Origin: a virus
DNA: 64,000 bases
Direction: 5' to 3' (one strand)
IMG/VR virus record: IMGVR_UViG_3300027754_000039
Span: 117,589 to 181,588 of that record
Shown here: positions 23,909 to 47,584 of the stretch, piece after piece
Layout: the number at the start of each line of letters is the position of its first letter
How positions within the stretch are numbered: position 1 is the stretch's first letter
The notes under the pieces: model-generated
What the model saw: only the letters and a program-made list of their open reading frames with translations
The model's database searches: none
What the model was told of the DNA's origin: nothing
Made by a program: the position numbers and the translations under genes

Positions 23909-23979
23909 TAGTCAGGACAGGATTCGAACCTGTACATTTAGAGCAGCGCCCTTTGTGTTTACCGTTTCACCACCTGACT
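23909..23979 (-). ncRNA. tRNA-like RNA A (non-canonical anticodon arm)
   Basis: Acceptor AGTCAGG/CCTGACT + A73; D arm GTGA..ACAC; T arm ACAGG-TTCGAAT-CCTGT; the anticodon arm is only AGGGC-GCT-GCTCT. Confidence 0.75.
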
Positions 23980-24197: not shown

Positions 24198-24269
24198 TAC
24201 TCCCAAGCAGAATCGAACTGCCGTTTCATCCGTGAAAGGGACGTGTCCTAACCCCTAGACGATAGGAGC
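24198..24269 (-). tRNA. tRNA-Glu (TTC)
   Basis: GCTCCTA/TGGGAGT acceptor; CGTCC-CTTTCAC-GGATG anticodon arm; GGCAG-TTCGATT-CTGCT T arm; A73; CCA not directly encoded. Confidence 0.9.
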
Positions 24270-29849: not shown

Positions 29850-29902
29850 TTTTCTTTTTTATTAATTGTTAAACATAAATATAAGGTACCTTTCTTATAT
29901 CG

Positions 29903-30273
29903 TGGACCCGGAGAGATTCGAACTCTCGTCCAAATTAAGTACTTCAATAAATTCATTTACAAGCTTAGTCTTGTTTTTCTAAACAGACAAAATAATCAAT
30001 TTTTTGGATCTTTAGAGAAATTGATAAAAACTGTGCAACCAGATAAGTCAGGCCTACTTCACTGTTTGTGCCCTTCTGTTCCTAGGATAGACACACCCCG
30101 TTAACTATGCTGCTATTGCAACTTCGTTGCTTACGAAAGACAATGCGTCTTCGAAAGTGAAATCAGAGATTTCGTTTGCGTTTAAGCTTTTATATAGGTT
30201 ATTAAAGAGTTTCCAATACTAACTCTGCTTGCATTTAAAGTAATACGCTTAACTGTCAAAACCGGTCGGGCCC
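29903..30273 (-). ncRNA. ssrA: tmRNA
   Basis: 5' GGGCCCG pairs with 3' CGGGTCC-A including G3-U70; T arm GAGAG-TTCGAAT-CTCTC; tag ORF 30105-30179 reads ANEISDFTFEDALSFVSNEVAIAA*; promoter at 30286-30317. Confidence 0.95.
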
Positions 30274-33134: not shown

Positions 33135-33704
33135 TTATTTTCTCCAATATTTAAAAGATTCTTCAATTTCTTTTGAAACCGATCCTTTTAAAATGTTAGG
33201 TTCATATTTTCCATAAGGATTATATTTCTCTGGTTTCTTTTGAGAAATTTCTTTTGTATGAATTGCATTGATTAATTTTAAAATTTTTTGAAATTGACCG
33301 AATGATATTACTCTTTCGCTAACTTTCTCCGAAAGAAACCTATTTAATTTGTCTATACCAAGCAATTCATATAGGTCCATAGCCTTAATACCTATTTCCT
33401 CAAAAGTTGCTGCATCGGCTTGAAATATAAATCCAACTGCTAGCCCATTTGACTTTGCTCCACCTGATACTCCAGGTTTCATTCCACGCATTGTACCAAA
33501 GCCGGCGCGTGAACTCATTCGATGAAATTCTTCTGCTTGTTTTTTATCTTTGATAACACAAACTTCATTTCCTGTCTTATGGTGTATAACGTGACCGCCT
33601 GACCATTTTTCTTCTGTAGAGCAGTTTATACAAGTAGTTGCTGTTGGTAATACCTTAAGACGACCTTCTGGTATTGTAATATCACATAATTCGCATTTTT
33701 TCAT
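33135..33704 (-). CDS. Protein with N-terminal DksA/TraR-type C4 zinc finger
   Basis: CELCDITIPEGRLKVLPTATTCINC; promoter at 33709-33740. Confidence 0.7.
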   Translation of the reverse strand: MKKCELCDITIPEGRLKVLPTATTCINCSTEEKWSGGHVIHHKTGNEVCVIKDKKQAEEFHRMSSRAGFGTMRGMKPGVSGGAKSNGLAVGFIFQADAATFEEIGIKAMDLYELLGIDKLNRFLSEKVSERVISFGQFQKILKLINAIHTKEISQKKPEKYNPYGKYEPNILKGSVSKEIEESFKYWRK

Positions 33705-37457: not shown

Positions 37458-37566
37458 TAAATTTAAGTAATTAATTGCCAATTACCAAATAGTAGCGAAA
37501 GATAATTGACTTGAGAATCAAGGAGTTACGAAATAGCGGTATAACCTTTTGACACTCAATTGGATA
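37458..37566 (-). promoter_or_regulatory. Promoter + tandem palindrome element E1
   Basis: -7 box 37458-65, -33 box 37486-89, TTGA-nnn-TCAA cores starting at 37511 and 37549. Confidence 0.75.
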
Positions 37567-38177
37567 CATTTGCGGCATTCTATAACCGCCTATCATCCCT
37601 AGAGTGTATTAAGGTATTGACCCGGGGAAGATCGACTGTGTACGGGGTGTATTTGAAGGTGGGTTTTCATGGTCTATATGTCATTGATACTTAAGTGGTT
37701 ATAAAGACGTAATGTATTGATACTCAATAGGTTGCGTGATTTCCATTATATAAAGGCCTGGGTTGGGGGAAGAAATAGCCCGCAGATTGTTCAGATTTTA
37801 TTTGGTAGTTTGAAAAATTTTACTATGAGAAGACCGGCGCGGTTTACCATAGGTCGTTCTATAGCTAGCGCCAGTAAATTAAATTTATTGCATTGGGCTT
37901 AGGCAAAGAGCCTAAGGGGAGTTATAAGGGCACCTTATCCTCCCAAAACCAGGTCTATATGAAAAAACTTATTGTCTCAATTGATACGTGGTATAGGCCC
38001 CAGCGACCGAATATTTTCATTGGGTTTCAGTGATATTCACCCTTGATTTACGGGGGTTGAAACCCTTGATATACTAGGGTTTTACGTGATTTACCCTTGA
38101 TCTATAGACTGATATCTAGGGAGTACCCTAGGTCTACACCCGTTAAACCCCTTGATTTACATAGGGTTTGTATAGGT
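37567..38177. other. Non-coding, GC-enriched region with palindromes and CCCTTGAT repeats
   Basis: No credible ORF. Palindrome cores at 37684 and 37717; CCCTTGAT at 38040, 38063, 38094, 38149 (fifth copy at 38195). Confidence 0.6.
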
Positions 38178-38633
38178 CTACCCTAGGTTGATAACCCTTG
38201 ATGCATCTCTATAAGGTTGCGCCATGATTCGAAATGCTGGATCCATACCTATATTGATGTAAGATGTCCAATGGCGTATCCATTCTGATTTGTATACTTG
38301 AGTAAATTCTCGAGTAGCTATATTGAGTTCTCGAGCTATATCGAGTCCTTTACTCCAAGCTTGATACTCTTGCTCTATAACTAGCGCTTGATCTGATTTG
38401 CTGTATCTATATATAGATAGTAGTTCACTATTAGAGCATTGAGTATGCCCCGCTTCGTGTAATAAAGCGCATAGTAACTTTTGAGTATGCGTGTATTGTT
38501 TAGGAGCGTGTATTGTGTCTGTATCTGTATCTAAATAATAAGAGCTGGAATCGTATTTTACAGAGTAGCCCCGGGAAGAGAGATACTTCTCTATTCTTCC
38601 CTGAGCAATTTTAAAGTCTATGATATTAAACAT
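38178..38633 (-). CDS. HEXXH metallopeptidase-like protein (ImmA/IrrE-like)
   Basis: ALLHEAGH followed by EQEYQAW. Confidence 0.6.
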   Translation of the reverse strand: MFNIIDFKIAQGRIEKYLSSRGYSVKYDSSSYYLDTDTDTIHAPKQYTHTQKLLCALLHEAGHTQCSNSELLSIYRYSKSDQALVIEQEYQAWSKGLDIARELNIATREFTQVYKSEWIRHWTSYINIGMDPAFRIMAQPYRDASRVINLG

Positions 38634-40797
38634 TACGAACGAATAATTTATTCAATGATAATGATAATTGAGTTAAGTTATTGATGTCAATCATTTCTGC
38701 ATTCTTACCATACATTTCTTGAAAACGTATACGAGAACGATCCAAACCATAATTGCTGTCTGATACAAAATAGGATAACACCTTGATGCCATTCTTACGC
38801 ATTTTGTCTACTTGTGCTTTGGTATGCTTAATAGCATAGTCACCACCGTATTGGATATTTTGATCTGAGTATCCTGGCTCACCGTCTGATATATTAATGA
38901 AGTACATTTCTTTACCATTAGCCGATGCAATAACCTCTTTCATAACAGCTTGAAAGCATAACCCTTCAGGAGTGGATCCACTACAACATACTGCATAAGC
39001 CTTATGTCTAAATTGCTCGAACTTATCTTTACGTGAATCATATACAACCCACATCAAAGGAGTTTGATTACCATAATTACCCATTGTACCTCTTGCGGAT
39101 ATAACTACATCCATAGATGATATCATTGATGCTGCTTTGGCAATGGCTATTGAAGTTTTCATTGAAGCTTCCCATTTAGATCCATGCATTGATCCTGACG
39201 CATCCACTGATATATGTATTAGTGAAGGAGTCACTGTATTGTGTATAGTTTGAGTAAATACATGATCATTACCAAAGCCTAATTCTGCAACCAATCTTCT
39301 GTCAATGCGACCTGTTTCCATTCTTGTTGTCTTAAGAGTTCTATCTTCATCACGCGTCTTTAAACGCTTACCTAATAGTGTACCTAGAACAATACCTTCA
39401 GCAACATAATCTTTACCCCAACCATTGGTAATATTAGCTTTATATTCTTCTGGGTCTTGAGCTTGAGAACCTAACAGGTCAGAATCAATTAAATTCTTAT
39501 TAATTCCTTTAACTACTGTGCAATTAGTTCTATTTCCATTATGTCTATTGCTAGTGTCATTTGGAATATCGCCACCCACAGACTCCAAAGTCATATTAGA
39601 TTCAGCAGCGGCATTTACTTTATTAGCTTCTGACTTAGATAGTGATTTCTTTTTAATCTTACCATCTAAAAAGTCTTTTTGCTTTTGTATAGCGTCTGCT
39701 AAATCCTTAGCCTTTTTAGCCTGCTTAGGATCTACCTTACCTTGTTGTGCTTGAGCGTCACCGCCATCTTCAGATGTACTCTCTCCCTGCATATCCATAT
39801 TAGGATCTGCTCCTGCTCCACCCATTTCATCATTCTCATCTTCATTGATGTCAGCTCCGTTGCCACCATCTCCTGGATTTGTTTTATCTTCTTCTTCGGG
39901 CTGACCGTCCCCAGGACCACTGCCTTGAATTCTATCCAACCCACCAATGTCATTACAAATAGCTTTGAATACCTCGCCGGCTACTTCAAATACTGCAGAG
40001 GTAGACTTAAGGCGAGAGATATCTCGAATATTAATAAGATCCCATATCTCTTGCAATGCTGGTAGAGTATTAAGCTGTCTATTAGGATTGGCAAAGTTAA
40101 CAATATGGAATATGTAATCATCCCAGGTGCGTTCACATTTCACTCCACTAAGCAATGCCTCGTCTATTTCCTTGGCATTGAAATACTTATCATACAAGGC
40201 TTTGTAATAACCTTGATACCCAGGAGCCGAATCATACACAAATCTATCTATACGTCTATCCTCAATAATATTAACTAGATCTTTAATCTTAGGTGCTACG
40301 TCATATCCGTCACAGACTTGTCCCGGAAAGTAATTAGTATGCCATTCCTTCATTCTTTCTATAAAGCTAGAGGAAGTTAATAAATTTGTTTTAGTGACAG
40401 TGAAATCGGTTAAGGCAATATGACTACCTTCGTGTAATGCTAATCCTACAGTGGCGTCAAATTCTTTCTCATCCAATTTAGCTGAGATAACTACTTGCTT
40501 ACCGTCCGTATAGGATTGGTTACCTGAAGAATACATAACCTTAATGTCATCCTTATTGGTTACAATTCTAACGAAGTTACCTATTGCTCTTTTATAAGCA
40601 GCTAGCTTAACAATATTCACGGTAGCTTTTTCCTTAATGGAAAGACTGTCATCCTTTGCTAGGAAATCGTCATCCAACCAAAAGCTGGAATTGGAATAGG
40701 TTGATTTATAAGGACTTTTATACCCCGAAGAGTAATACCCTGATGTCCATTTATTTACTTGCTTAGTAAGGGCCTTGGTGCTAAATTTCTTTGCCAT
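38626..40797 (-). CDS. vWA-domain protein with N-terminal HEXXH region and acidic linker
   Basis: GLALHEGSH; NIIEDRRID; MIDAS DASGSM, TPEG, ISDGEP. Confidence 0.85.
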   Translation of the reverse strand: MAKKFSTKALTKQVNKWTSGYYSSGYKSPYKSTYSNSSFWLDDDFLAKDDSLSIKEKATVNIVKLAAYKRAIGNFVRIVTNKDDIKVMYSSGNQSYTDGKQVVISAKLDEKEFDATVGLALHEGSHIALTDFTVTKTNLLTSSSFIERMKEWHTNYFPGQVCDGYDVAPKIKDLVNIIEDRRIDRFVYDSAPGYQGYYKALYDKYFNAKEIDEALLSGVKCERTWDDYIFHIVNFANPNRQLNTLPALQEIWDLINIRDISRLKSTSAVFEVAGEVFKAICNDIGGLDRIQGSGPGDGQPEEEDKTNPGDGGNGADINEDENDEMGGAGADPNMDMQGESTSEDGGDAQAQQGKVDPKQAKKAKDLADAIQKQKDFLDGKIKKKSLSKSEANKVNAAAESNMTLESVGGDIPNDTSNRHNGNRTNCTVVKGINKNLIDSDLLGSQAQDPEEYKANITNGWGKDYVAEGIVLGTLLGKRLKTRDEDRTLKTTRMETGRIDRRLVAELGFGNDHVFTQTIHNTVTPSLIHISVDASGSMHGSKWEASMKTSIAIAKAASMISSMDVVISARGTMGNYGNQTPLMWVVYDSRKDKFEQFRHKAYAVCCSGSTPEGLCFQAVMKEVIASANGKEMYFINISDGEPGYSDQNIQYGGDYAIKHTKAQVDKMRKNGIKVLSYFVSDSNYGLDRSRIRFQEMYGKNAEMIDINNLTQLSLSLNKLFVRNV

Positions 40798-40821
40798 ATC
40801 TTATATATTAATGTCTATTCA

Positions 40822-40918
40822 TAAATTTAAGTATTTACTTTCTAAATTCCTAATCTTTTCGAAAGATTTACGGCTTGATACTCAATGAGTTATAAGTCAT
40901 TGATACTTAAGTAGTTAC
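40822..40918 (-). promoter_or_regulatory. Promoter + tandem palindrome element E2
   Basis: -7 box 40822-29, -33 box 40850-53, cores at 40875 and 40900. Confidence 0.85.
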
Positions 40919-40925
40919 GGTATAT

Positions 40926-40949
40926 AAGGAAAGGGGGTGCAACACCCCC
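40926..40949 (-). terminator. Intrinsic terminator after the AAA gene
   Basis: GGGGGTG-TTG-CACCCCC followed by TTTCCTT. Confidence 0.65.
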
Positions 40950-40968
40950 ACTCCAACCATAAAAAATA

Positions 40969-42105
40969 TTATTTTGCTATATCGTCTGCTCCGAATAAAT
41001 CACTTTTGGTCTCTTCAGGATTAATACAATATTTTTGTACTATTTGTTTTACATAGGTACGCTCCGAGTCAACTCCTCCATCCTCGCTAAAGAAAGGATA
41101 TATACCAACCTCAGCGGCTTCTGTCAAACTAAACCCATCATATATTAATGATGTCAACTCCACAGCAGCACGAGTGGATAGCGAGTTAGTCAATTTAGGA
41201 TTAGATGACTTACACTCCTTACGAGTTTGAGAAGCGATCTCTGCAATTGCTTGCACAGCTTCTGTCTGCGCTGCTGGATACTTCATCTTTAATAAAGCGA
41301 ATTCCATTTGCTCATCTAATTGATCCATTTCAATAGTGATGAATCGATCCTGCAACGCTCTATCCATTACACGAGTGGAAGTATACTCATTACCTACGTT
41401 TGCTGTGGCAATGAAACTCACACCTGGTGCTACCTTAATAGTCGGAGCTCCGTCTTTTTCATCAAGGCGTAAATACCTTTGATTAAGATCCAATACAGTC
41501 ATTAAGATGTTCCAAGCTTCAGGATGAGCTCTAGATAATTCATCTAACAGGATGACTGCATTTTCTGTCTGGATTGCTTTAACGAATAATGACTCCGCAA
41601 AGTAAGTACCATCTTCTTTTGAGAAGTGAGTATTACCTATCAAGGTAGCACGCGGATCTTGAGTGGCGCCTAAGTTAAAATAAAAGTCTGGACGCTCCAA
41701 TGCACTAACTAAATACTTAGCGGCCATTGTCTTACCTGTTCCTGCAGGACCTGTCATCATGATATTCCTACCACGCATTGCTGAGCGTACAAGATATTTC
41801 CATTTCAGGTCACTCATGATTAACTGCTCCGGCTTAAGACCAGTGGAGGCGTGGATGAATGTTTTCATTACATCATGCTCGCTATTAGCAGCTATCAATT
41901 CCACAGGAGTGTCTACCTGTGCTTGCATTGCGCTGGTCGCAAATGCCCATTCATTGGTTACATTATCCAATACTAATTGTGCTCCCTTTTCTGCCGCTGC
42001 ACGTCTAAGTGAGCGATCAATTTGGTTAGACACATCCTTACCTTCAGCGGTAATGGCTTTCAAAAAACGACCTTCTTGGGTCACGGTTGCAATTGTTACT
42101 TTCAT
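40969..42105 (-). CDS. MoxR/CobS-like AAA+ ATPase
   Basis: Walker A GPAGTGKT; Walker B ILLDE; FIATAN; DRALQDRF; STR. Confidence 0.9.
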   Translation of the reverse strand: MKVTIATVTQEGRFLKAITAEGKDVSNQIDRSLRRAAAEKGAQLVLDNVTNEWAFATSAMQAQVDTPVELIAANSEHDVMKTFIHASTGLKPEQLIMSDLKWKYLVRSAMRGRNIMMTGPAGTGKTMAAKYLVSALERPDFYFNLGATQDPRATLIGNTHFSKEDGTYFAESLFVKAIQTENAVILLDELSRAHPEAWNILMTVLDLNQRYLRLDEKDGAPTIKVAPGVSFIATANVGNEYTSTRVMDRALQDRFITIEMDQLDEQMEFALLKMKYPAAQTEAVQAIAEIASQTRKECKSSNPKLTNSLSTRAAVELTSLIYDGFSLTEAAEVGIYPFFSEDGGVDSERTYVKQIVQKYCINPEETKSDLFGADDIAK

Positions 42106-42137
42106 ATTTTTTATTTTTATGGTTAATTCCTTCTTCT

Positions 42138-42235
42138 TAAATTTAAGTATTTAATTCCTTATATCCTAATCTTTAGGCAAATTAAATGCCTTAGTACTCA
42201 ATGAGTTATATAACCCATTGGTTATCAATTAGTTA
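42138..42235 (-). promoter_or_regulatory. Promoter + tandem palindrome element E3
   Basis: -7 box 42138-45, -33 box 42166-69, variant cores at 42191 and 42218. Confidence 0.8.
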
Positions 42236-42690
42236 TTTTTTCTAAAGGCATAGCAAGACCAATATTTGGATCCTACTGCCTTATATTGCGCTTGGCTATA
42301 TAAATTAGATCTAGACCAATCCTGATTAATGTGACCCACTGTCATATTAGCTAACATATCACTGTCAATAGTGGTAATTTTATTACCTGTTCTTGCAAAC
42401 ACCTTAAACCAATAATCCGAACCTGCCGGCTTGAATTCTATTGTTTGTAAAGCACCTTTTTGAAAATTAGTAAACAAATCTAATGCATTAGCCCATTGTA
42501 TTTTATTAAATCTTACAAAACCTAAATCATCTACTACGGTCAAACCTCCTTTGGTTTTAACTATTGCTCTATATGAGCCTTTGCGGCCTTGAATATTGTC
42601 AACTCGAGCTCTTTGTATTTCTGGAGTTACTACTACTAATTCCGGGGTTGTATATTCCGGGTTGAATGGGGTGGTTTTCATCTTTTTCAT
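42229..42690 (-). CDS. Hypothetical protein
   Basis: ORF between E4 and E3; its stop codon lies inside the E3 palindrome. Confidence 0.65.
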   Translation of the reverse strand: MKKMKTTPFNPEYTTPELVVVTPEIQRARVDNIQGRKGSYRAIVKTKGGLTVVDDLGFVRFNKIQWANALDLFTNFQKGALQTIEFKPAGSDYWFKVFARTGNKITTIDSDMLANMTVGHINQDWSRSNLYSQAQYKAVGSKYWSCYAFRKNN

Positions 42691-42716
42691 ATGTCTTATT
42701 TATTAATGTCTATACA

Positions 42717-42823
42717 TAAAGTTAAGTATTTAATTCCTATAATCCTAATCATTTGACAAAATAAGGCCATTGAGTATCAAGGAGTTACAGAAATCTGCAT
42801 CTTATTGAGTATCAATAAGTTAC
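42717..42823 (-). promoter_or_regulatory. Promoter + tandem palindrome element E4
   Basis: -7 box 42717-24, -33 box 42745-48, cores at 42770 and 42805. Confidence 0.85.
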
Positions 42824-42840
42824 AGTAGGTTTCATATACC

Positions 42841-42890
42841 TGTTGGCCCCTTACTCCTACCGGGGGTTCCGGGATCGTTCCTACCGAACA
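42841..42890 (-). ncRNA. Putative promoter-driven small RNA
   Basis: GC-rich folded segment directly after promoter 42894-42925; no ORF. Confidence 0.45.
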
Positions 42891-42990
42891 TGATAAAGAT
42901 AAGAAGAATTTTTCAATCTACCAAATCTATTTTACAGTAGGAAAGGATGCCACCCCTGACATCCCCTCCATTAGACATGAACAATATTTG

Positions 42991-43073
42991 TAGTCAGGGC
43001 AGGAATTGAACCTGCTGCCGTGATGGTAATGTTACAAATTTCTCACGAGCGCAACCATTGCGACTACCTGACT
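42991..43073 (-). ncRNA. tRNA-like RNA B (Tyr-GTA-like loop on an extended, bulged arm)
   Basis: AGTCAGG/CCTGACT-A; T arm GCAGG-TTCAATT-CCTGC; arm TCGTGA-GA-AAT-[TT GTA AC]-ATT-ACCA-TCACGG. Confidence 0.7.
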
Positions 43074-43286
43074 AAGCCTTACCTTGAGATTACTGGTAAG
43101 TAGTTATTTCGGTTTTCTATTTCTACAAAACCTGCGAGGCATCCCTCATGAAAAGTACCAACACTACTAGGAGAGAATGTGTCCATCTCTTTATCCTAAG
43201 AAGTCCCGCTCTGGCCGTAGACTTTCTGCCAACCTATTGTTAAATGAGTCTTAGGTCAAAGACTGCTGAGTATCTCTTACTCATTG

Positions 43287-43372
43287 TAGTCAGAACAGGA
43301 TTTGAACCTGTATCTTTAGGGCAACGCCCTTTAGGGCAACGCCCTTTGTGTTTACCGTTTCACCACCTGACT
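43287..43372 (-). ncRNA. tRNA-like RNA C (near-copy of A with a duplicated hairpin)
   Basis: Same D arm as A; 15-nt AAAGGGCGTTGCCCT tandemly duplicated in the anticodon position. Confidence 0.75.
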
Positions 43373-43485
43373 ATATTTAGGAAAGCAGAAGATGGGTGTG
43401 TGGACATCTACTTTTACGATTAGCATTACTTTGACTTCATTCAGTCCCCTCTCCCGCATGAGCAGTATTCCCTAATCAACCTTTG

Positions 43486-43554
43486 TAGTCATAGCAGGAC
43501 TCGAACCTACACCTTCCCAATACGAATTGGGGCTCTACATTGAGCTATATGACT
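43486..43554 (-). ncRNA. tRNA-like RNA D (6-nt anticodon loop)
   Basis: AGTCATA/TATGACT-A; GCTC..GAGC D stem; CCCAA-TTCGTA-TTGGG; GTAGG-TTCGAGT-CCTGC. Confidence 0.7.
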
Positions 43555-43626
43555 AACCCGGTTTTGCCTCGGAAGGCAGAGCTGCGATCTTCGGCGTCAC
43601 AGTAGCCAGCTTAGACTGAACAGGAA

Positions 43627-43971
43627 TTAAATAATAACTCCAAACACGTCTGCCATCTTTTCAAAATGTTCTTTAAAAATTCTACGGTTCATAATTTCCT
43701 TACCGGTAGCGTCTTTAAAGATCACATTCAACCTACGTCCAGTTGCATTAGCGCCTGTTACCTCGATTGTGTTACACTCTACCACGTTACCTTTACCTTG
43801 ACGGAAATTAACCGATTTTGCATCTACCGATGTCAACTTCATTCCAATTAAGGTTGCTGAAGGATTGGATTTTGCTACTTTAGTCGCTACTTTCTTAGTA
43901 GCTACTTTCTTAAATGCTGCTTTTAAATTCGCGCCTTGCGCTGATGTTGCAGTTACTGTTGCTGTACTCAT
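43627..43971 (-). CDS. Small basic protein with KKVAT repeats
   Basis: AAFKKVATKKVATKVAK; promoter at 44000-44031. Confidence 0.6.
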   Translation of the reverse strand: MSTATVTATSAQGANLKAAFKKVATKKVATKVAKSNPSATLIGMKLTSVDAKSVNFRQGKGNVVECNTIEVTGANATGRRLNVIFKDATGKEIMNRRIFKEHFEKMADVFGVII

Positions 43972-44027
43972 AATTGTTATTTTTTATTTTTATTATACTT
44001 AAATATAAGGACCTTTTTTCAAAGATC

Positions 44028-44885
44028 CTAATCATTTTTAAAATTCATTTGACTTAAATTATTTCTAAAAGTATCTTCATCTTTTGACCCCGGAAGGTTA
44101 AAGGATACTCTAGATAAAGATCCGTTAGGATATACTTTATATGCTATTTGAGCTCCATTTACAAATTTAGTGCGAACTATATCATAACGATTACCGTTAC
44201 CGTAATTACTTCTTCTTCCTTTACTATCATAACTTGTTTCATACCCATAATCGGTAGTGACTTCAGCGTCAGGATACTCAGCCTTGAAACGATCCACAGT
44301 AGTCTGTAAAGCATTTTTCTTATTCAATTCAAGCTTACGTGCATTATCAATTTTATCATTAGCAGTCTTAATCTTTTCCATTACAGATTTCACTCTGGAT
44401 AAAGCTTGCGTTTCTTGTTTATAGTCAATCCCAGGTCCACAGATATACATTTTATATCCTTTTGATTCTCCTTTTGATCTCCAAGATGAGCTATATACAA
44501 TTTGCTCATCAACTTTAACCTTTTGACCATCCTTATGGGATATGACAGCCGATTGACGTTCAAACACTTCCGACCAAACAATAATACATACCGGATTAGC
44601 TTCGCTATTGATATAGTCGCCGGTTACTTGAGCAGTCTCTTCCCAGGTTTTAATATCCATTGAATACTGAGTGGTATCAAAGTCTATCAAATACTTTCTC
44701 GCAGCGGCTATCTGCTCCTGGTCTTTCTTTTTAGTTGCAGCGATCTTGTCCTGCTTTGCTTTGATCTCTTTTTCCAATTCCAAAGCCTTTTTGGCTTCGG
44801 CTTCTTTTTTAGCTAACGCTTCCTTTTCGCGGATTAACGCTACCATTTCTAATTCTGCTGGGGTCAATTCTAGTGTCTTTGTCAT
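44028..44885 (-). CDS. Hypothetical coiled-coil protein
   Basis: K/E/A-rich N-terminal helix; follows E5. Confidence 0.65.
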   Translation of the reverse strand: MTKTLELTPAELEMVALIREKEALAKKEAEAKKALELEKEIKAKQDKIAATKKKDQEQIAAARKYLIDFDTTQYSMDIKTWEETAQVTGDYINSEANPVCIIVWSEVFERQSAVISHKDGQKVKVDEQIVYSSSWRSKGESKGYKMYICGPGIDYKQETQALSRVKSVMEKIKTANDKIDNARKLELNKKNALQTTVDRFKAEYPDAEVTTDYGYETSYDSKGRRSNYGNGNRYDIVRTKFVNGAQIAYKVYPNGSLSRVSFNLPGSKDEDTFRNNLSQMNFKND

Positions 44886-44918
44886 GTCTTTTTTTTATAA
44901 ATTAATAATGTCTATACA

Positions 44919-45017
44919 TAAAGTTAAGTATTTAATTCCTATAATCCTAATCTTTTGAAAAGATTTTCCTATTGAGAATCAAGGAGTTATATAACCTATT
45001 GATACTCAAGTAGTTAC
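44919..45017 (-). promoter_or_regulatory. Promoter + tandem palindrome element E5
   Basis: -7 box 44919-26, -33 box 44947-50, cores at 44972 and 44999. Confidence 0.85.
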
Positions 45018-45157
45018 ATTTTTCCTTCTAACACAGCCCCAAAAGTGAGTACTGCAACCAATATTACAAAGAAGCTAATAGCTATTAATGCTGTGCATAT
45101 AAAGTCCTTTGGGTTTTCCATGTACGCTAGCTTTAGCGCGGTCATCATTTTTTTCAT
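45014..45157 (-). CDS. Small membrane peptide (47 aa)
   Basis: Manually translated MKKMMTALKLAYMENPKDFICTALIAISFFVILVAVLTFGAVLEGKM*; the stop is the TAA of the palindrome arm. Confidence 0.6.
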   Translation of the reverse strand: MKKMMTALKLAYMENPKDFICTALIAISFFVILVAVLTFGAVLEGKM

Positions 45158-45250
45158 ATAGTCTTTTTTTTAAATAACACAGGAGGGGCCGATCCTTACT
45201 CTTATATGGCAGTCTCGCCTAGGCATTGATTTTTGAACCTCCTTAGGTTA

Positions 45251-45481
45251 TTATGCTTTTTTAGTTAAAGGAGTTGCAACACCGGCGATCATTTTATGAG
45301 GAATTCCTGCTATGATAATATATTTTGCTACCACGGCAGAACCTGCTGTCATTGGTACTCTCTTGTAATTTGATTTATACGAATTTTTGTCTTTTGCACA
45401 CAAAGCTAAAAAAGTAGCTTTGTCAATTTTTGCCATTTTTACCGGTTTTGAACTTTTGTCTGAATTTGCTGTCTTTGTCAT
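45251..45481 (-). CDS. Small Lys-rich hypothetical protein
   Basis: Follows E6. Confidence 0.55.
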   Translation of the reverse strand: MTKTANSDKSSKPVKMAKIDKATFLALCAKDKNSYKSNYKRVPMTAGSAVVAKYIIIAGIPHKMIAGVATPLTKKA

Positions 45482-45516
45482 AATCTAGGTTTTTGGTTTA
45501 TATTAATGTCTATACA

Positions 45517-45614
45517 TAAATTTAAGTATTTACTTTAATATTACCAAATCATTTGGTAAACAAAGGCCATTGATAATCAAGCAGTTACGTAACTCATTGA
45601 TACTCAATGCGTTA
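45517..45614 (-). promoter_or_regulatory. Promoter + tandem palindrome element E6
   Basis: -7 box 45517-24, -33 box 45545-48, cores at 45570 and 45597. Confidence 0.85.
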
Positions 45615-46526
45615 TTTTTTCACCACTGTATAATGATATCTATACCCGTCATGCTCCTGTTTAAGATATCCTTTATTAATAAGGGTTTCGCGGATCGGAT
45701 CATACTGCTGGTTCTTATATGCTGTGACCTTTCCTGATACTAAGGATCTCCCCTCCCATGATTTGAATCTAGCCAATTCAGGAAACTTAGCAATTTCAAT
45801 CATTCTATCCAAAGCTCCACGAGTATGGATCTTAGTTATCTTGTTGCTATATATATAGGAAAGGACCTGATGCATTGCTGCTCGCGAATTTGCGTTTATA
45901 CCTCTTTTCATATTAATTAAATTTAATGTAAAATGCTGGATCGTTTGTACTATATCTATATCCCGATCCATGGTTTTTAGTTATATAAGCCTCCACGTTG
46001 GAAACCATTGATCCCATTGACGTTTGCTTCAGCTCGCTATATATACGATCCGCAATGGTATGCAGAAGTCCAATGGATATACCTTTACCATACCAAAGCT
46101 TGGTTCGATACCCTTTCGCTCTCGGCTCTGTGAACATCCTAGAATAGGAAAGATCAAATTGGTCTACTGCTTTATGTATTGCAGTGAATAGCACTTTTTT
46201 CTGCTCCACGCTTAAGTGGTGGTAGTTTCTTCTGTCTTTTGGATTGATATTCATGGTATATATTATTTAATAATGGTTACGTCTTTAAACTTAATAGTAG
46301 CAGTGGTCTTATTGAGCATCATATCGAAGGTATACAAATCCATTTTGGTATCGCCCATATAGCTAACATTCATAGATCTATGATCTCCAGTAACATACCC
46401 ATTACAAATTACAAACACCGTTGGTGACCCACAAAACATTTGTCCTTCAACATGGAACTTTGTACCTGGGGTTTCCATAATCTTACGAAACTCTTTACGC
46501 GTCATTAGGTTATTTATCATCTTCAT
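45612..46526 (-). CDS. Three hypothetical genes (45612-45911, 45913-46254, 46263-46526)
   Basis: Tiled ORFs downstream of E7; two starts moved to internal ATGs to avoid overlap with a neighbouring gene or the promoter. Confidence 0.6.
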
Positions 46527-46543
46527 ATTTTTATGTCTATACA

Positions 46544-46641
46544 TAAATTTAAGTTATTTATTCCTATTTACCAAATCTTTCGGTGAAACTAACCTATTGA
46601 GTATCAAGCAGTTACGTAACCTATTGATTTCCAATAGGATT
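46544..46641 (-). promoter_or_regulatory. Promoter + tandem palindrome element E7
   Basis: -7 box 46544-51, -33 box 46572-75, cores at 46597 and 46624. Confidence 0.85.
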
Positions 46642-46753
46642 AGTTTACCAGCAAAAATACATTTGGCAGAGTGGAATTAATTACTTATATTATTCAAGTA
46701 TGTATGATGCTATATATATAGAGCGACACCGCCGTAAGAAAACTAAAAGAATA

Positions 46754-46785
46754 TTTGGTAGAACCGGAAGAGTTCTTTATATTAA
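46754..46785 (+). promoter_or_regulatory. Host-type promoter of the HTH gene
   Basis: TTTG-N20-TATATTAA, 53 nt upstream of the ATG. Confidence 0.7.
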
Positions 46786-46838
46786 TGTATAATAAATAAT
46801 AAGGGGCTATTCCCTAAAAACAACAAAAACAAAAAGTT

Positions 46839-47039
46839 ATGTTATCAACAGCAAACAAAGTGTATGTAATTGCGTCTCGTCAACGCAGAGGAGATGTTAC
46901 TAAAACCGCAGAAAATACTGGTTTCAGTCCATCTTACGTGTCTCGTGTATTTCGTGGCATTCGCAATAACGAAACAATCCTTTCTGAAGGGTATCGTATT
47001 GCTTCTCGTAGAATGAAAAATATCGATCCTAACGGATAG
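46839..47039 (+). CDS. Small helix-turn-helix DNA-binding protein
   Basis: GDVTKTAENTGFSPSYVSRVFRG HTH pattern; own promoter; not antisense to any gene. Confidence 0.75.
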   Translation: MLSTANKVYVIASRQRRGDVTKTAENTGFSPSYVSRVFRGIRNNETILSEGYRIASRRMKNIDPNG

Positions 47040-47552
47040 TATTATATTGTTCTATATATAGAGCGAGAGATTGAATTGGGATTGGCATCGACGTCGATCC
47101 CTTTTCTCATGTTGAGATCGGTCTATTAGGAAAGAAAACGGACTATAGAAAAAAATTGAAGATTCGATATATATTCATATTTGATTACCGCCTTCTCTAC
47201 TAGTCTTAAATCCTATTCAAATCAATTGCGTATACAACCTGTAGTCTACTTACATTCTAATAGGGTAATAGATATTACCTTTTCCATTCCGACTATATAC
47301 GTTAATCTGCAAGGTGCTAGATATAGATTCCAATTCCGGCTTTTCCACTACATTTGACTGTGAGCGCAGCTGTGCCTGAAGAGTATATACATATATATTC
47401 TATCGCTCTATACTCGTATACTCTTTAATATTATTGTTATTATCTTTATATAGAGCAATATATAGTATAGTATATAGGGTCGTTGTATATGAAGTATTTG
47501 TCTAGCGAACCCTGTTCGTCTCCGCAAAGATTCAGTAGAAAATATACAGTTG

Positions 47553-47580
47553 AAAAGCTAGCAGGGTCACTACTAGCTTT
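47553..47580 (-). terminator. Terminator at the end of the leader array
   Basis: AAAGCTAG...CTAGCTTTT hairpin. Confidence 0.6.
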
Positions 47581-47584
47581 AATT

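Follow-up and report, generated by a model that had tools for sequence, protein, structure and literature searches.

Tandem 25-bp dyads at fixed spacing upstream of a promoter subclass in an uncultured T4-like phage of Bacteroidota: a putative protein-binding control module

Scanning the 181,588-bp IMG/VR virus record IMGVR_UViG_3300027754_000039 (G000), which is rated 100% complete, we found eight tandem pairs of a 25-bp dyad, all of them in one gene block at 37504-46641 of the final 64 kb of the record (this whole stretch of 64,000 nucleotides is called the window here, and positions are counted from its first letter). G000 is an uncultured T4-like phage of Bacteroidota, and the genes in the window run in the direction of the minus strand. 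Its nearest relative, judged by the CobS-like ATPase encoded in the block, shares 74-78% protein identity, and megablast and tblastn searches against cultured phages returned no close relative, the best match being Microcystis phage Mel-JY01 with 52% for CobS. The dyad is made of four boxes, TAAC-N3-TTGA-N3-TCAA-N3-GTTA (extended consensus, TAACTnATTGATnATCAATnAGTTA), with a centre that reads GTA/TAC in G000. With the search pattern TAACYNNTTGANNNTCAANNRGTTA at up to three mismatches, the window gives 15 matches against 0.33 expected from the shuffles used as control, the largest shuffle value being 3, and the rest of the genome holds only scattered single matches at 12-13 of the 16 positions. 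The eight pairs are the following.

37504-37528 and 37542-37566, no strand: E1 dyad pair, centres 38 bp apart.
37677-37701 and 37710-37734, no strand: eighth dyad pair, 33 bp apart, with no canonical -33/-7 promoter after it.
40868-40917, no strand: E2 dyad pair (starts 40868/40893), abutting, 25 bp apart; a GC-rich hairpin precedes it on the coding strand.
42184-42235, no strand: E3 dyad pair (starts 42184/42211), 27 bp apart; degenerate core in the proximal copy (TTAG..TCAA), and an overlap of the distal arm with the 153-aa gene's stop codon.
42763-42822, no strand: E4 dyad pair (starts 42763/42798), 35 bp apart.
44965-45016, no strand: E5 dyad pair (starts 44965/44992), 27 bp apart, with a perfect distal copy (16/16).
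45563-45614, no strand: E6 dyad pair (starts 45563/45590), 27 bp apart, with a perfect distal copy that overlaps a stop codon.
46590-46641, no strand: E7 dyad pair (starts 46590/46617), 27 bp apart, between the divergent E7 promoter (minus strand) and the promoters of a plus-strand helix-turn-helix (HTH) gene.

Seven of these pairs, E1-E7, stand at a constant distance from a promoter. In 7/7 cassettes, a T[TA]GG box starts 28 nt from the proximal dyad centre and is itself 22 nt from a TTAAnTTTA box, and the centre-to-centre spacing within the pairs is 38, 25, 27, 35, 27, 27, and 27 bp from E1 to E7. This fixed promoter spacing places the dyad centres near -63 and -90, if transcription begins about 13 nt past the first base of the TTAAnTTTA box. 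A sequence-only reading of the window had described the seven pairs, and its coordinates (37489/37511 to 46575/46597), its invariant palindrome-promoter spacing, and its second palindromes 25-38 bp away, 27 bp in four cases, all hold; the whole-genome motif scan that it called for is the one that confines tandem sites to the block. Its count was right for E1-E7 and incomplete in total, since it missed the eighth pair at 37677/37710. Likewise, the 25-bp palindrome that it described stands as a dyad but not as one with intact outer arms: the GTTA arm nearest the promoter is degenerate in the proximal dyad of most cassettes. The three distal arms that it saw overlapping stop codons do so at 42229, 45014, and 45612.

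The cassette promoter belongs, as a variant, to a type found across the genome, TTTGGTA-N-CTTAnnTTTAnG, which we take to be the -33/-7 promoter architecture of Bacteroidota. About 13 promoters of the same general type occur elsewhere in the genome, all without dyads, as the sequence-only reading had said of promoters outside the interval. Within G000, TTAGG at -33 is found in this block only, at E2-E5 and at an internal promoter at 44030. Downstream of the -7 box stands TGTATAG, or TGAATAG in one cassette, a shared motif that had also been pointed out before, and E4 and E5 have a long identical promoter stretch in common. The core promoters and the main genes that they precede are arranged as follows.

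37458-37489, minus strand: E1 core promoter, from the TTTGG box to the TTAAATTTA box.
40822-40853, minus strand: E2 core promoter, TTAGG at -33, ahead of the 723-aa CobT-like gene.
42138-42169, minus strand: E3 core promoter, TTAGG at -33, ahead of the CobS-like AAA+ gene.
42717-42748, minus strand: E4 core promoter, TTAGG at -33, ahead of the 153-aa gene.
44919-44950, minus strand: E5 core promoter, TTAGG at -33, followed by the 285-aa gene, then the 114-aa gene and two tRNA-like genes.
45517-45548, minus strand: E6 core promoter, TTTGG at -33, ahead of a 76-aa gene.
46544-46575, minus strand: E7 core promoter, TTTGG at -33.
46263-46544, minus strand: E7 gene, whose listed ATG at 46544 falls within the -7 box; the true start is probably an ATG about 25 nt further downstream.
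38626-40797, minus strand: 723-aa gene, CobT-like by position, with no Pfam match; homologs follow dyads in 13 loci.
40969-42105, minus strand: 378-aa AAA_5/CbbQ_C (CobS/MoxR-like) ATPase gene; homologs follow dyads in other phages.
44028-44885, minus strand: 285-aa orphan gene; homologs stand directly after dyads in four loci (L015, L022, L023, and L144).

Among the listed open reading frames (ORFs) at 37-47 kb, only the CobT-like, CobS-like, 153-aa, 114-aa, and HTH genes have a homolog in the ten genomes compared, and the block is, judged by its gene content, a hyperplastic run of small orphan genes. The internal TTAGG-type promoter (44030, minus strand) lies in the 3' end of the 285-aa gene, before the 114-aa gene, and has no dyads. 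TTAGG promoters are also present in the dyad-free relative G001, so TTAGG at -33 is not strictly linked to the dyad. The eighth pair lies in a region of about 600 bp without a convincing ORF (37567-38177), between a 151-aa gene and E1, which includes a GC-richer segment of about 110 nt; downstream of the pair, a search for a noncoding RNA gave no Rfam match, and the fold z-score of 0.09 is not unusual. Ahead of the E4 dyads stands a GC-rich segment (…CCCCCGGTAGGAGTAAG…CCAACAGGTATAT…; 42823-42900) that could represent the 3' portion of a tRNA-like element, and the same segment recurs between promoters in a dyad-free relative (L005, around 2300-2440). Beyond E7, nearly 1 kb (46642-47584) is noncoding on the minus strand, holds only the plus-strand HTH gene, and is rich in short TATATA and CTCTATATATA-type motifs, which is unusual for this otherwise tightly packed genome.

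To place the element among other phages, 80 related loci were fetched from IMG/VR using the CobS-like ATPase of cassette E3 as the query, and all genomic contexts of homologs were drawn from IMG/VR. Dyads follow an all-or-none pattern per record, with 0 in 15 relatives and 2-17 in most others, and the reversed-pattern control gives 0 everywhere. The 225 nonredundant sites of other phages yield the same logo as G000, and some CobS-related loci that are 52-75% identical and have quite different promoters carry the same tandem dyads just upstream of -33/-7 promoters. The gene families that follow dyads also recur across phages; these include CobT-like (13 loci) and CobS-like (8 loci) genes, the 153-aa and 76-aa genes, and two families of about 280 aa (7 and 5 loci), the second of which includes the 285-aa gene of G000. 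Since dyads precede the same gene families across phages, they point to a conserved regulon, beyond what a patch of homology alone would give. The dedicated regulon proposed by the sequence-only reading thus finds support, both in a promoter subclass confined to the block and in dyads before the same genes in distant phages.

The tandem pattern was also sought in viral contigs and in one genome per species for 185,579 bacterial and archaeal species, and it was found in 65 viral-contig stretches versus 5 stretches in the bacterial and archaeal genomes. At least one of these five, a contig assigned to a Paceibacterota metagenome-assembled genome (MAG) with a CobT-like gene directly after the dyads (L088), is a mis-binned phage contig. 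Tandem dyads are also present in an Alistipes MAG (L085) and an Oscillospiraceae MAG (L086), and in all three cases they probably mark phage contigs that were wrongly binned. Across phages, adjacent dyad centres are 25 bp apart in 53 of 182 pairs, 27 bp in 21, and 29 bp in 11, with further spacings of about 38 and about 49-50 bp. When -33 boxes are located by a simple pattern, the distance from the proximal centre to the box clusters in a series of 21/32/43/53 bp and another of 27/39 bp. The G000 lineage has its proximal site at 27 and its distal site at about 54, so that one member of the pair falls in the 21/32/43/53 series. These distances suggest, tentatively, a placement on one face of the helix relative to RNA polymerase.

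The site is not restricted to phages. A 5.8-Mb Saprospiraceae MAG (G047, the genome behind locus L089) contains 327 dyads at up to one mismatch versus 2 for the control, a second Saprospiraceae MAG contains 10 versus 0, and exact sites, one to three in each, are found in 13 of 150 other Saprospiraceae genomes (control, 0). In sampled loci of G047 (L248-L255 and L288-L307), the contigs that carry the sites are bacterial, encoding FtsH, polyphosphate kinase (Ppk), a penicillin-binding protein, and cargo of the type IX secretion system. The logo of 31 sites from this MAG is that of the phages, the sites are single copies with unrelated flanks, and 70% of them are intergenic versus 25% expected. 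A miniature inverted-repeat transposable element was considered for G047 and rejected because the flanks are unrelated. Like the repetitive extragenic palindromic (REP) sequences and the repetitive IHF-binding palindromic and bacterial interspersed mosaic elements (RIP/BIME), the G047 dyad is a high-copy, mostly intergenic palindrome that often lies near gene ends; unlike them, it occurs as single-site copies without stem covariation or shared flanks. Finding 327 sites with the same logo in a bacterial MAG that lacks the HTH family encoded beside E7 makes it most likely that a cellular protein recognises the sequence, at least in that lineage.

As read from its pattern of variation, the dyad is a sequence-specific site on duplex DNA, and it is close to certain to be a protein-binding control module that defines a promoter class. 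The alternative that the palindromes function as RNA, forming a terminator or a processing hairpin at the 3' end of the upstream cassette, would account for the three distal arms that overlap stop codons and for some MAG copies that are extended by GC clamps and T-runs in a terminator-like manner. However, the phage dyads fold as RNA at only about -1 to -7 kcal/mol (one at -11), barely above shuffles, and have no T-run; separate GC-rich hairpins stand before some pairs; and the spacing is fixed to the downstream promoter, not to the upstream stop codon. Moreover, the three variable positions per arm show no covariation either in G000 or in the 225 sites of other phages, their pairing rate (0.35-0.47) does not exceed what base preference predicts, and no maintenance of a stem by compensatory change, of the kind expected for REP-like elements, was found, pairing at the variable positions being 0.35-0.58 and again in keeping with base preference. 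The lack of covariation together with the weak hairpins argues for a protein site on duplex DNA and not for a terminator, and a role in RNA appears extremely improbable. A different alternative is offered by the PeSL elements (promoter early stem-loops) of T4-like phages, composite terminator/promoter motifs that are behind gene shuffling in hyperplastic regions, where G000 likewise repeats composite regulatory units between small variable genes (PMC4122927, PMC2839356). If the terminator-dyad-promoter units were mainly recombination modules of this type, some 50-100 bp of near-identity would serve to swap cargo and the dyads would be nonregulatory, as the run of small orphan genes and the long identical promoter stretch common to E4 and E5 would allow. 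Yet a PeSL combines a terminator stem-loop with an early promoter, whereas G000 repeats a weakly folding, protein-type dyad pair, and a separate GC hairpin lies upstream in only some cassettes. The dyad logo is also kept across lineages with completely different promoter sequences, indicating that selection acts on the dyad in its own right, not on a homology patch that contains it. Furthermore, the dyads stay linked to the same genes over large distances, their spacing and helical phase to the promoter are constrained, and the bacterial genome holds single 25-bp sites without flanking similarity. We thus consider it improbable that the units are mainly recombination modules; by analogy, PeSL-like shuffling by the cassettes is plausible and may be a by-product of the units, but it is not needed to explain the dyad.

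Two proteins encoded in the window come into question as phage factors.

46839-47039, plus strand: 66-aa Cro/Xre-like HTH gene P0001, transcribed divergently from E7, with 197 bp between it and the distal dyad.
33135-33704, minus strand: 189-aa protein that has a DksA/TraR C4 zinc finger at its N-terminus and is widespread in this group of phages, with or without dyads.

When the 367 ORFs of G000 were profiled against five dyad-bearing and five dyad-free genomes, no gene had a perfect distribution. The top candidate of this profile, the 189-aa zf-DksA/TraR protein, was rejected as it also occurs in 8/15 dyad-free records; it may be a modulator that binds RNA polymerase. For the 66-aa protein the argument is more intricate. 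The dyads could be operators of a phage repressor or activator, namely this Cro/Xre-like HTH protein, which would regulate itself and switch the cassette promoters during infection in the manner of Cro/CI or of restriction-modification controller (C) proteins at tandem dyads. As in those systems, the tandem dyads of G000 adjoin a divergent small Xre-type HTH gene, one that is faced by plus-strand promoters. Its family, with 588 cluster representatives, is found only in dyad-bearing records (5/29 versus 0/15), the gene lies inside the dyad block in G019, G023, L114, L136, and L262, and dyads are within 2.5 kb in 24 of 26 loci fetched by homology, usually as a pair about 57 nt past the stop codon. 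P0001 gives sub-threshold HTH_31 and HTH_3 matches over one stretch and a weak sequence match to a YdaS/Cro structure (E 0.0035), and its AlphaFold2 model is confident (predicted local distance difference test score, pLDDT, 93) with four helices; its top fold matches are Xre-type repressors and C proteins, none of them significant (E >= 0.5). Against this, even an 80-sequence profile found no member of the family in four complete dyad-bearing genomes (G007, G013, G036, and G041), in the 95%-complete G020, or in the 327-site MAG. For the lineage of G013, G020, and G036, iterated hidden Markov models, the 80-sequence profile, and a regular expression for the recognition helix all returned nothing. 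Being absent from several dyad-bearing phages, P0001 cannot be the general binder. In addition, a single DNA logo prevails everywhere while family members share only 35-48% identity, not the usual picture for a factor that coevolves with its site; the 26 loci are largely close relatives of each other; and the inner half-sites, 6-7 bp centre to centre, are too close for a standard HTH dimer. Unlike Cro/CI operators and C-protein boxes, the G000 sites lie upstream of the core promoter without overlapping it, each dyad is 25 bp long with four boxes, and the HTH gene is missing from many site-bearing phages. That the dyads are operators of this protein is therefore a possibility that we regard as rather unlikely. 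A host activator of the CRP/FNR type would be in line with the sequence-only reading, which named CRP as a class I activator that acts from about -61. Of the class I positions, -61.5, -71.5, -82.5, and -92.5, two (-61.5 and -92.5) are near the inferred centres at -63 and -90, and the half-sites, TTGAT/ATCAA, are those of FNR and FixK boxes. In all sites, however, the core is TTGAT-N1-ATCAA, whereas FNR and CRP dimers need N4 (TTGA-N6-TCAA), or 6 bp between half-sites of the form TGTGA/TCACA. With half-sites separated by 1 bp instead of 4, the dyad cannot fit a Crp/Fnr dimer, and the conserved outer TAAC/GTTA arms have no counterpart in the FNR box. The inferred centres may still lie at class-I-like positions, near -61/-92, but binding by a CRP/FNR-type activator is very unlikely.

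Several other known sites were set aside. A NrdR-like regulon of nucleotide metabolism was rejected because, in place of nrdAB, the large genes encode a CobS/MoxR-like ATPase and a 723-aa protein without annotation. Fur boxes, TetR sites, parS, omega heptads, and MarR boxes were judged to be unfit in orientation or spacing, and a literature search for the core sequence found no relevant paper.

The half-site itself offers a lead to a host protein. Taken over 225 phage and 31 MAG sites, it reads (T/A)ATCAATnAGTTA and fits every specified position of WATCAANNNNTTR, the consensus of integration host factor (IHF) in published use. Most dyads of G000 match WATCAANNNNTTR on one strand only because of their GTA/TAC centre. 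DNA bound by IHF is kinked at two steps that are separated by 9 bp; WATCAR lies between them, and TTR lies in the flank (10.1101/382655). In the dyad, the T8|T9 and A17|A18 steps, where kinks would presumably fall, are likewise 9 bp apart, and TTA stands at +10 to +12. A symmetric site of the IHF type needs its dyad axis on W, and two WATCAA motifs that share this one base make up TTGAT-n-ATCAA, which sets the T|T and A|A steps 9 bp apart. The H' site of phage lambda probably has a TTG-N5-CAA core as well. Saprospiraceae MAGs have one to three genes each for DNABII proteins (the HU/IHF family), and one class of these scores higher as IHF than as HU, below the equivalog cut-offs. Among the 22 phage records searched for an encoded HU/IHF protein, no PF00216 match was above the cut-off, and the two sub-threshold stretches are in the dyad-free G001 and G015. 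We propose, with a confidence that falls a little short of even, that the binder may be a host architectural protein of the IHF type.

A number of observations weigh against this proposal. The match to IHF is an argument from consensus and geometry, and G22, which pairs with C4, is strongly conserved though it is N in the IHF consensus. A protein with a footprint of about 35 bp would have little room on abutting sites that repeat every 25 bp. The single DNABII protein of G047 scores 72 bits as IHF-beta versus 46 bits as HU, with both values below the equivalog cut-offs, and it has an RNI motif, with Ile at the arm position, where we take IHF and HU to carry the proline of the RNP arm. Canonical IHF is proteobacterial, and we know of no sequence-specific IHF described in Bacteroidota. 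Many of the G047 sites lie near stop codons or between convergent genes and not upstream of promoters, and a general Bacteroidota host regulon was not detected among 400 sampled genomes, where the forward count was about that of the control. Finally, the closest CobS relatives (L005 and L006/G001) have near-identical promoters and zero dyads, and one dyad-free close relative has a TTAGG promoter.

If the proposal of an IHF-like host protein holds, each 25-bp dyad would be bound as a duplex by a symmetric dimeric protein, and the two sites, centred at about -63 and -90 relative to the inferred start, would form a control module for a subset of host-sigma-A-type (-33/-7) promoters, making a regulon of at least seven transcription units in the hyperplastic region. 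The binder would be host encoded, a homodimeric IHF-like member of the DNABII family, and the DNA bend that it introduces just upstream of a weak -33 box (TTAGG in 4/7) would activate the promoter or shield it from silencing, comparable to phage Mu, in which IHF bound upstream of Pe, the early promoter, counteracts repression by H-NS (PMC8501957). In this lineage, P0001, the small HTH protein of the phage, may modulate these promoters or turn them off. The sites, their spacing, conservation, and distribution, and the absence of hairpin covariation are observed, whereas the identity of the binder, activation over repression, and the timing are inferred. A more far-reaching version, which we put forward tentatively and hold to be somewhat doubtful as a whole, is that a new sequence-specific nucleoid or architectural protein of Saprospiraceae-like Bacteroidota, probably an IHF-like homodimer, reads the 25-bp site, which at least one host genome has amplified to over 300 copies; that uncultured T4-like phages of the jumbo range, broadly but patchily distributed, copied the site as phased tandem pairs for a host-takeover regulon of CobS/CobT-like and orphan genes; and that some phage lineages added a competing HTH protein.

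Compared with IHF at Mu Pe, the G000 dyad also lies upstream of a phage promoter, with WATCAANNNNTTR as half-site and presumed kink steps 9 bp apart. It differs in being fully symmetric, implying a homodimer, in its tandem copies at 25-38 bp, in the extra conserved C4/G22, and in the Bacteroidota host. Another DNABII protein, TF1 of phage SPO1, is a homodimer with preferred sites at early promoters, in a phage with modified DNA. TF1 is encoded by the phage and represses from sites over the promoter, whereas here no DNABII gene was found in the phage records and the sites in G000 lie upstream of the promoter.

The window also encodes a phage transfer-messenger RNA (29900-30273, minus strand; Rfam, 101.8 bits) with a tag peptide that ends in AIAA. 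Genes for tRNAs or tRNA-like elements are located at 23909-23979, 24198-24269, 43287-43372, and 43486-43554, to the last of which ARAGORN assigns an odd anticodon loop.

Very little is known of how phages of Bacteroidota control transcription, and the T4-like relatives of G000 have no cultured member. The analysis provides a well-defined and widely conserved cis-element of fixed geometry, along with a defined set of target genes and two candidate binders, and this element, a form of upstream factor site at phage promoters, is unusually well conserved. Beyond what the sequence-only reading had noticed, the motif is held in common with a bacterial genome at more than 300 copies, and its half-site equals the consensus of IHF. 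Should the phage HTH protein be the binder, the block would represent a compact Cro-like switch in a lytic T4-type phage. If it is an IHF-like protein of the host, the dyad would give Bacteroidota their first described DNABII site with sequence specificity, explain the high-copy chromosomal repeat, and provide a sequence signature for linking uncultured phages to their hosts.

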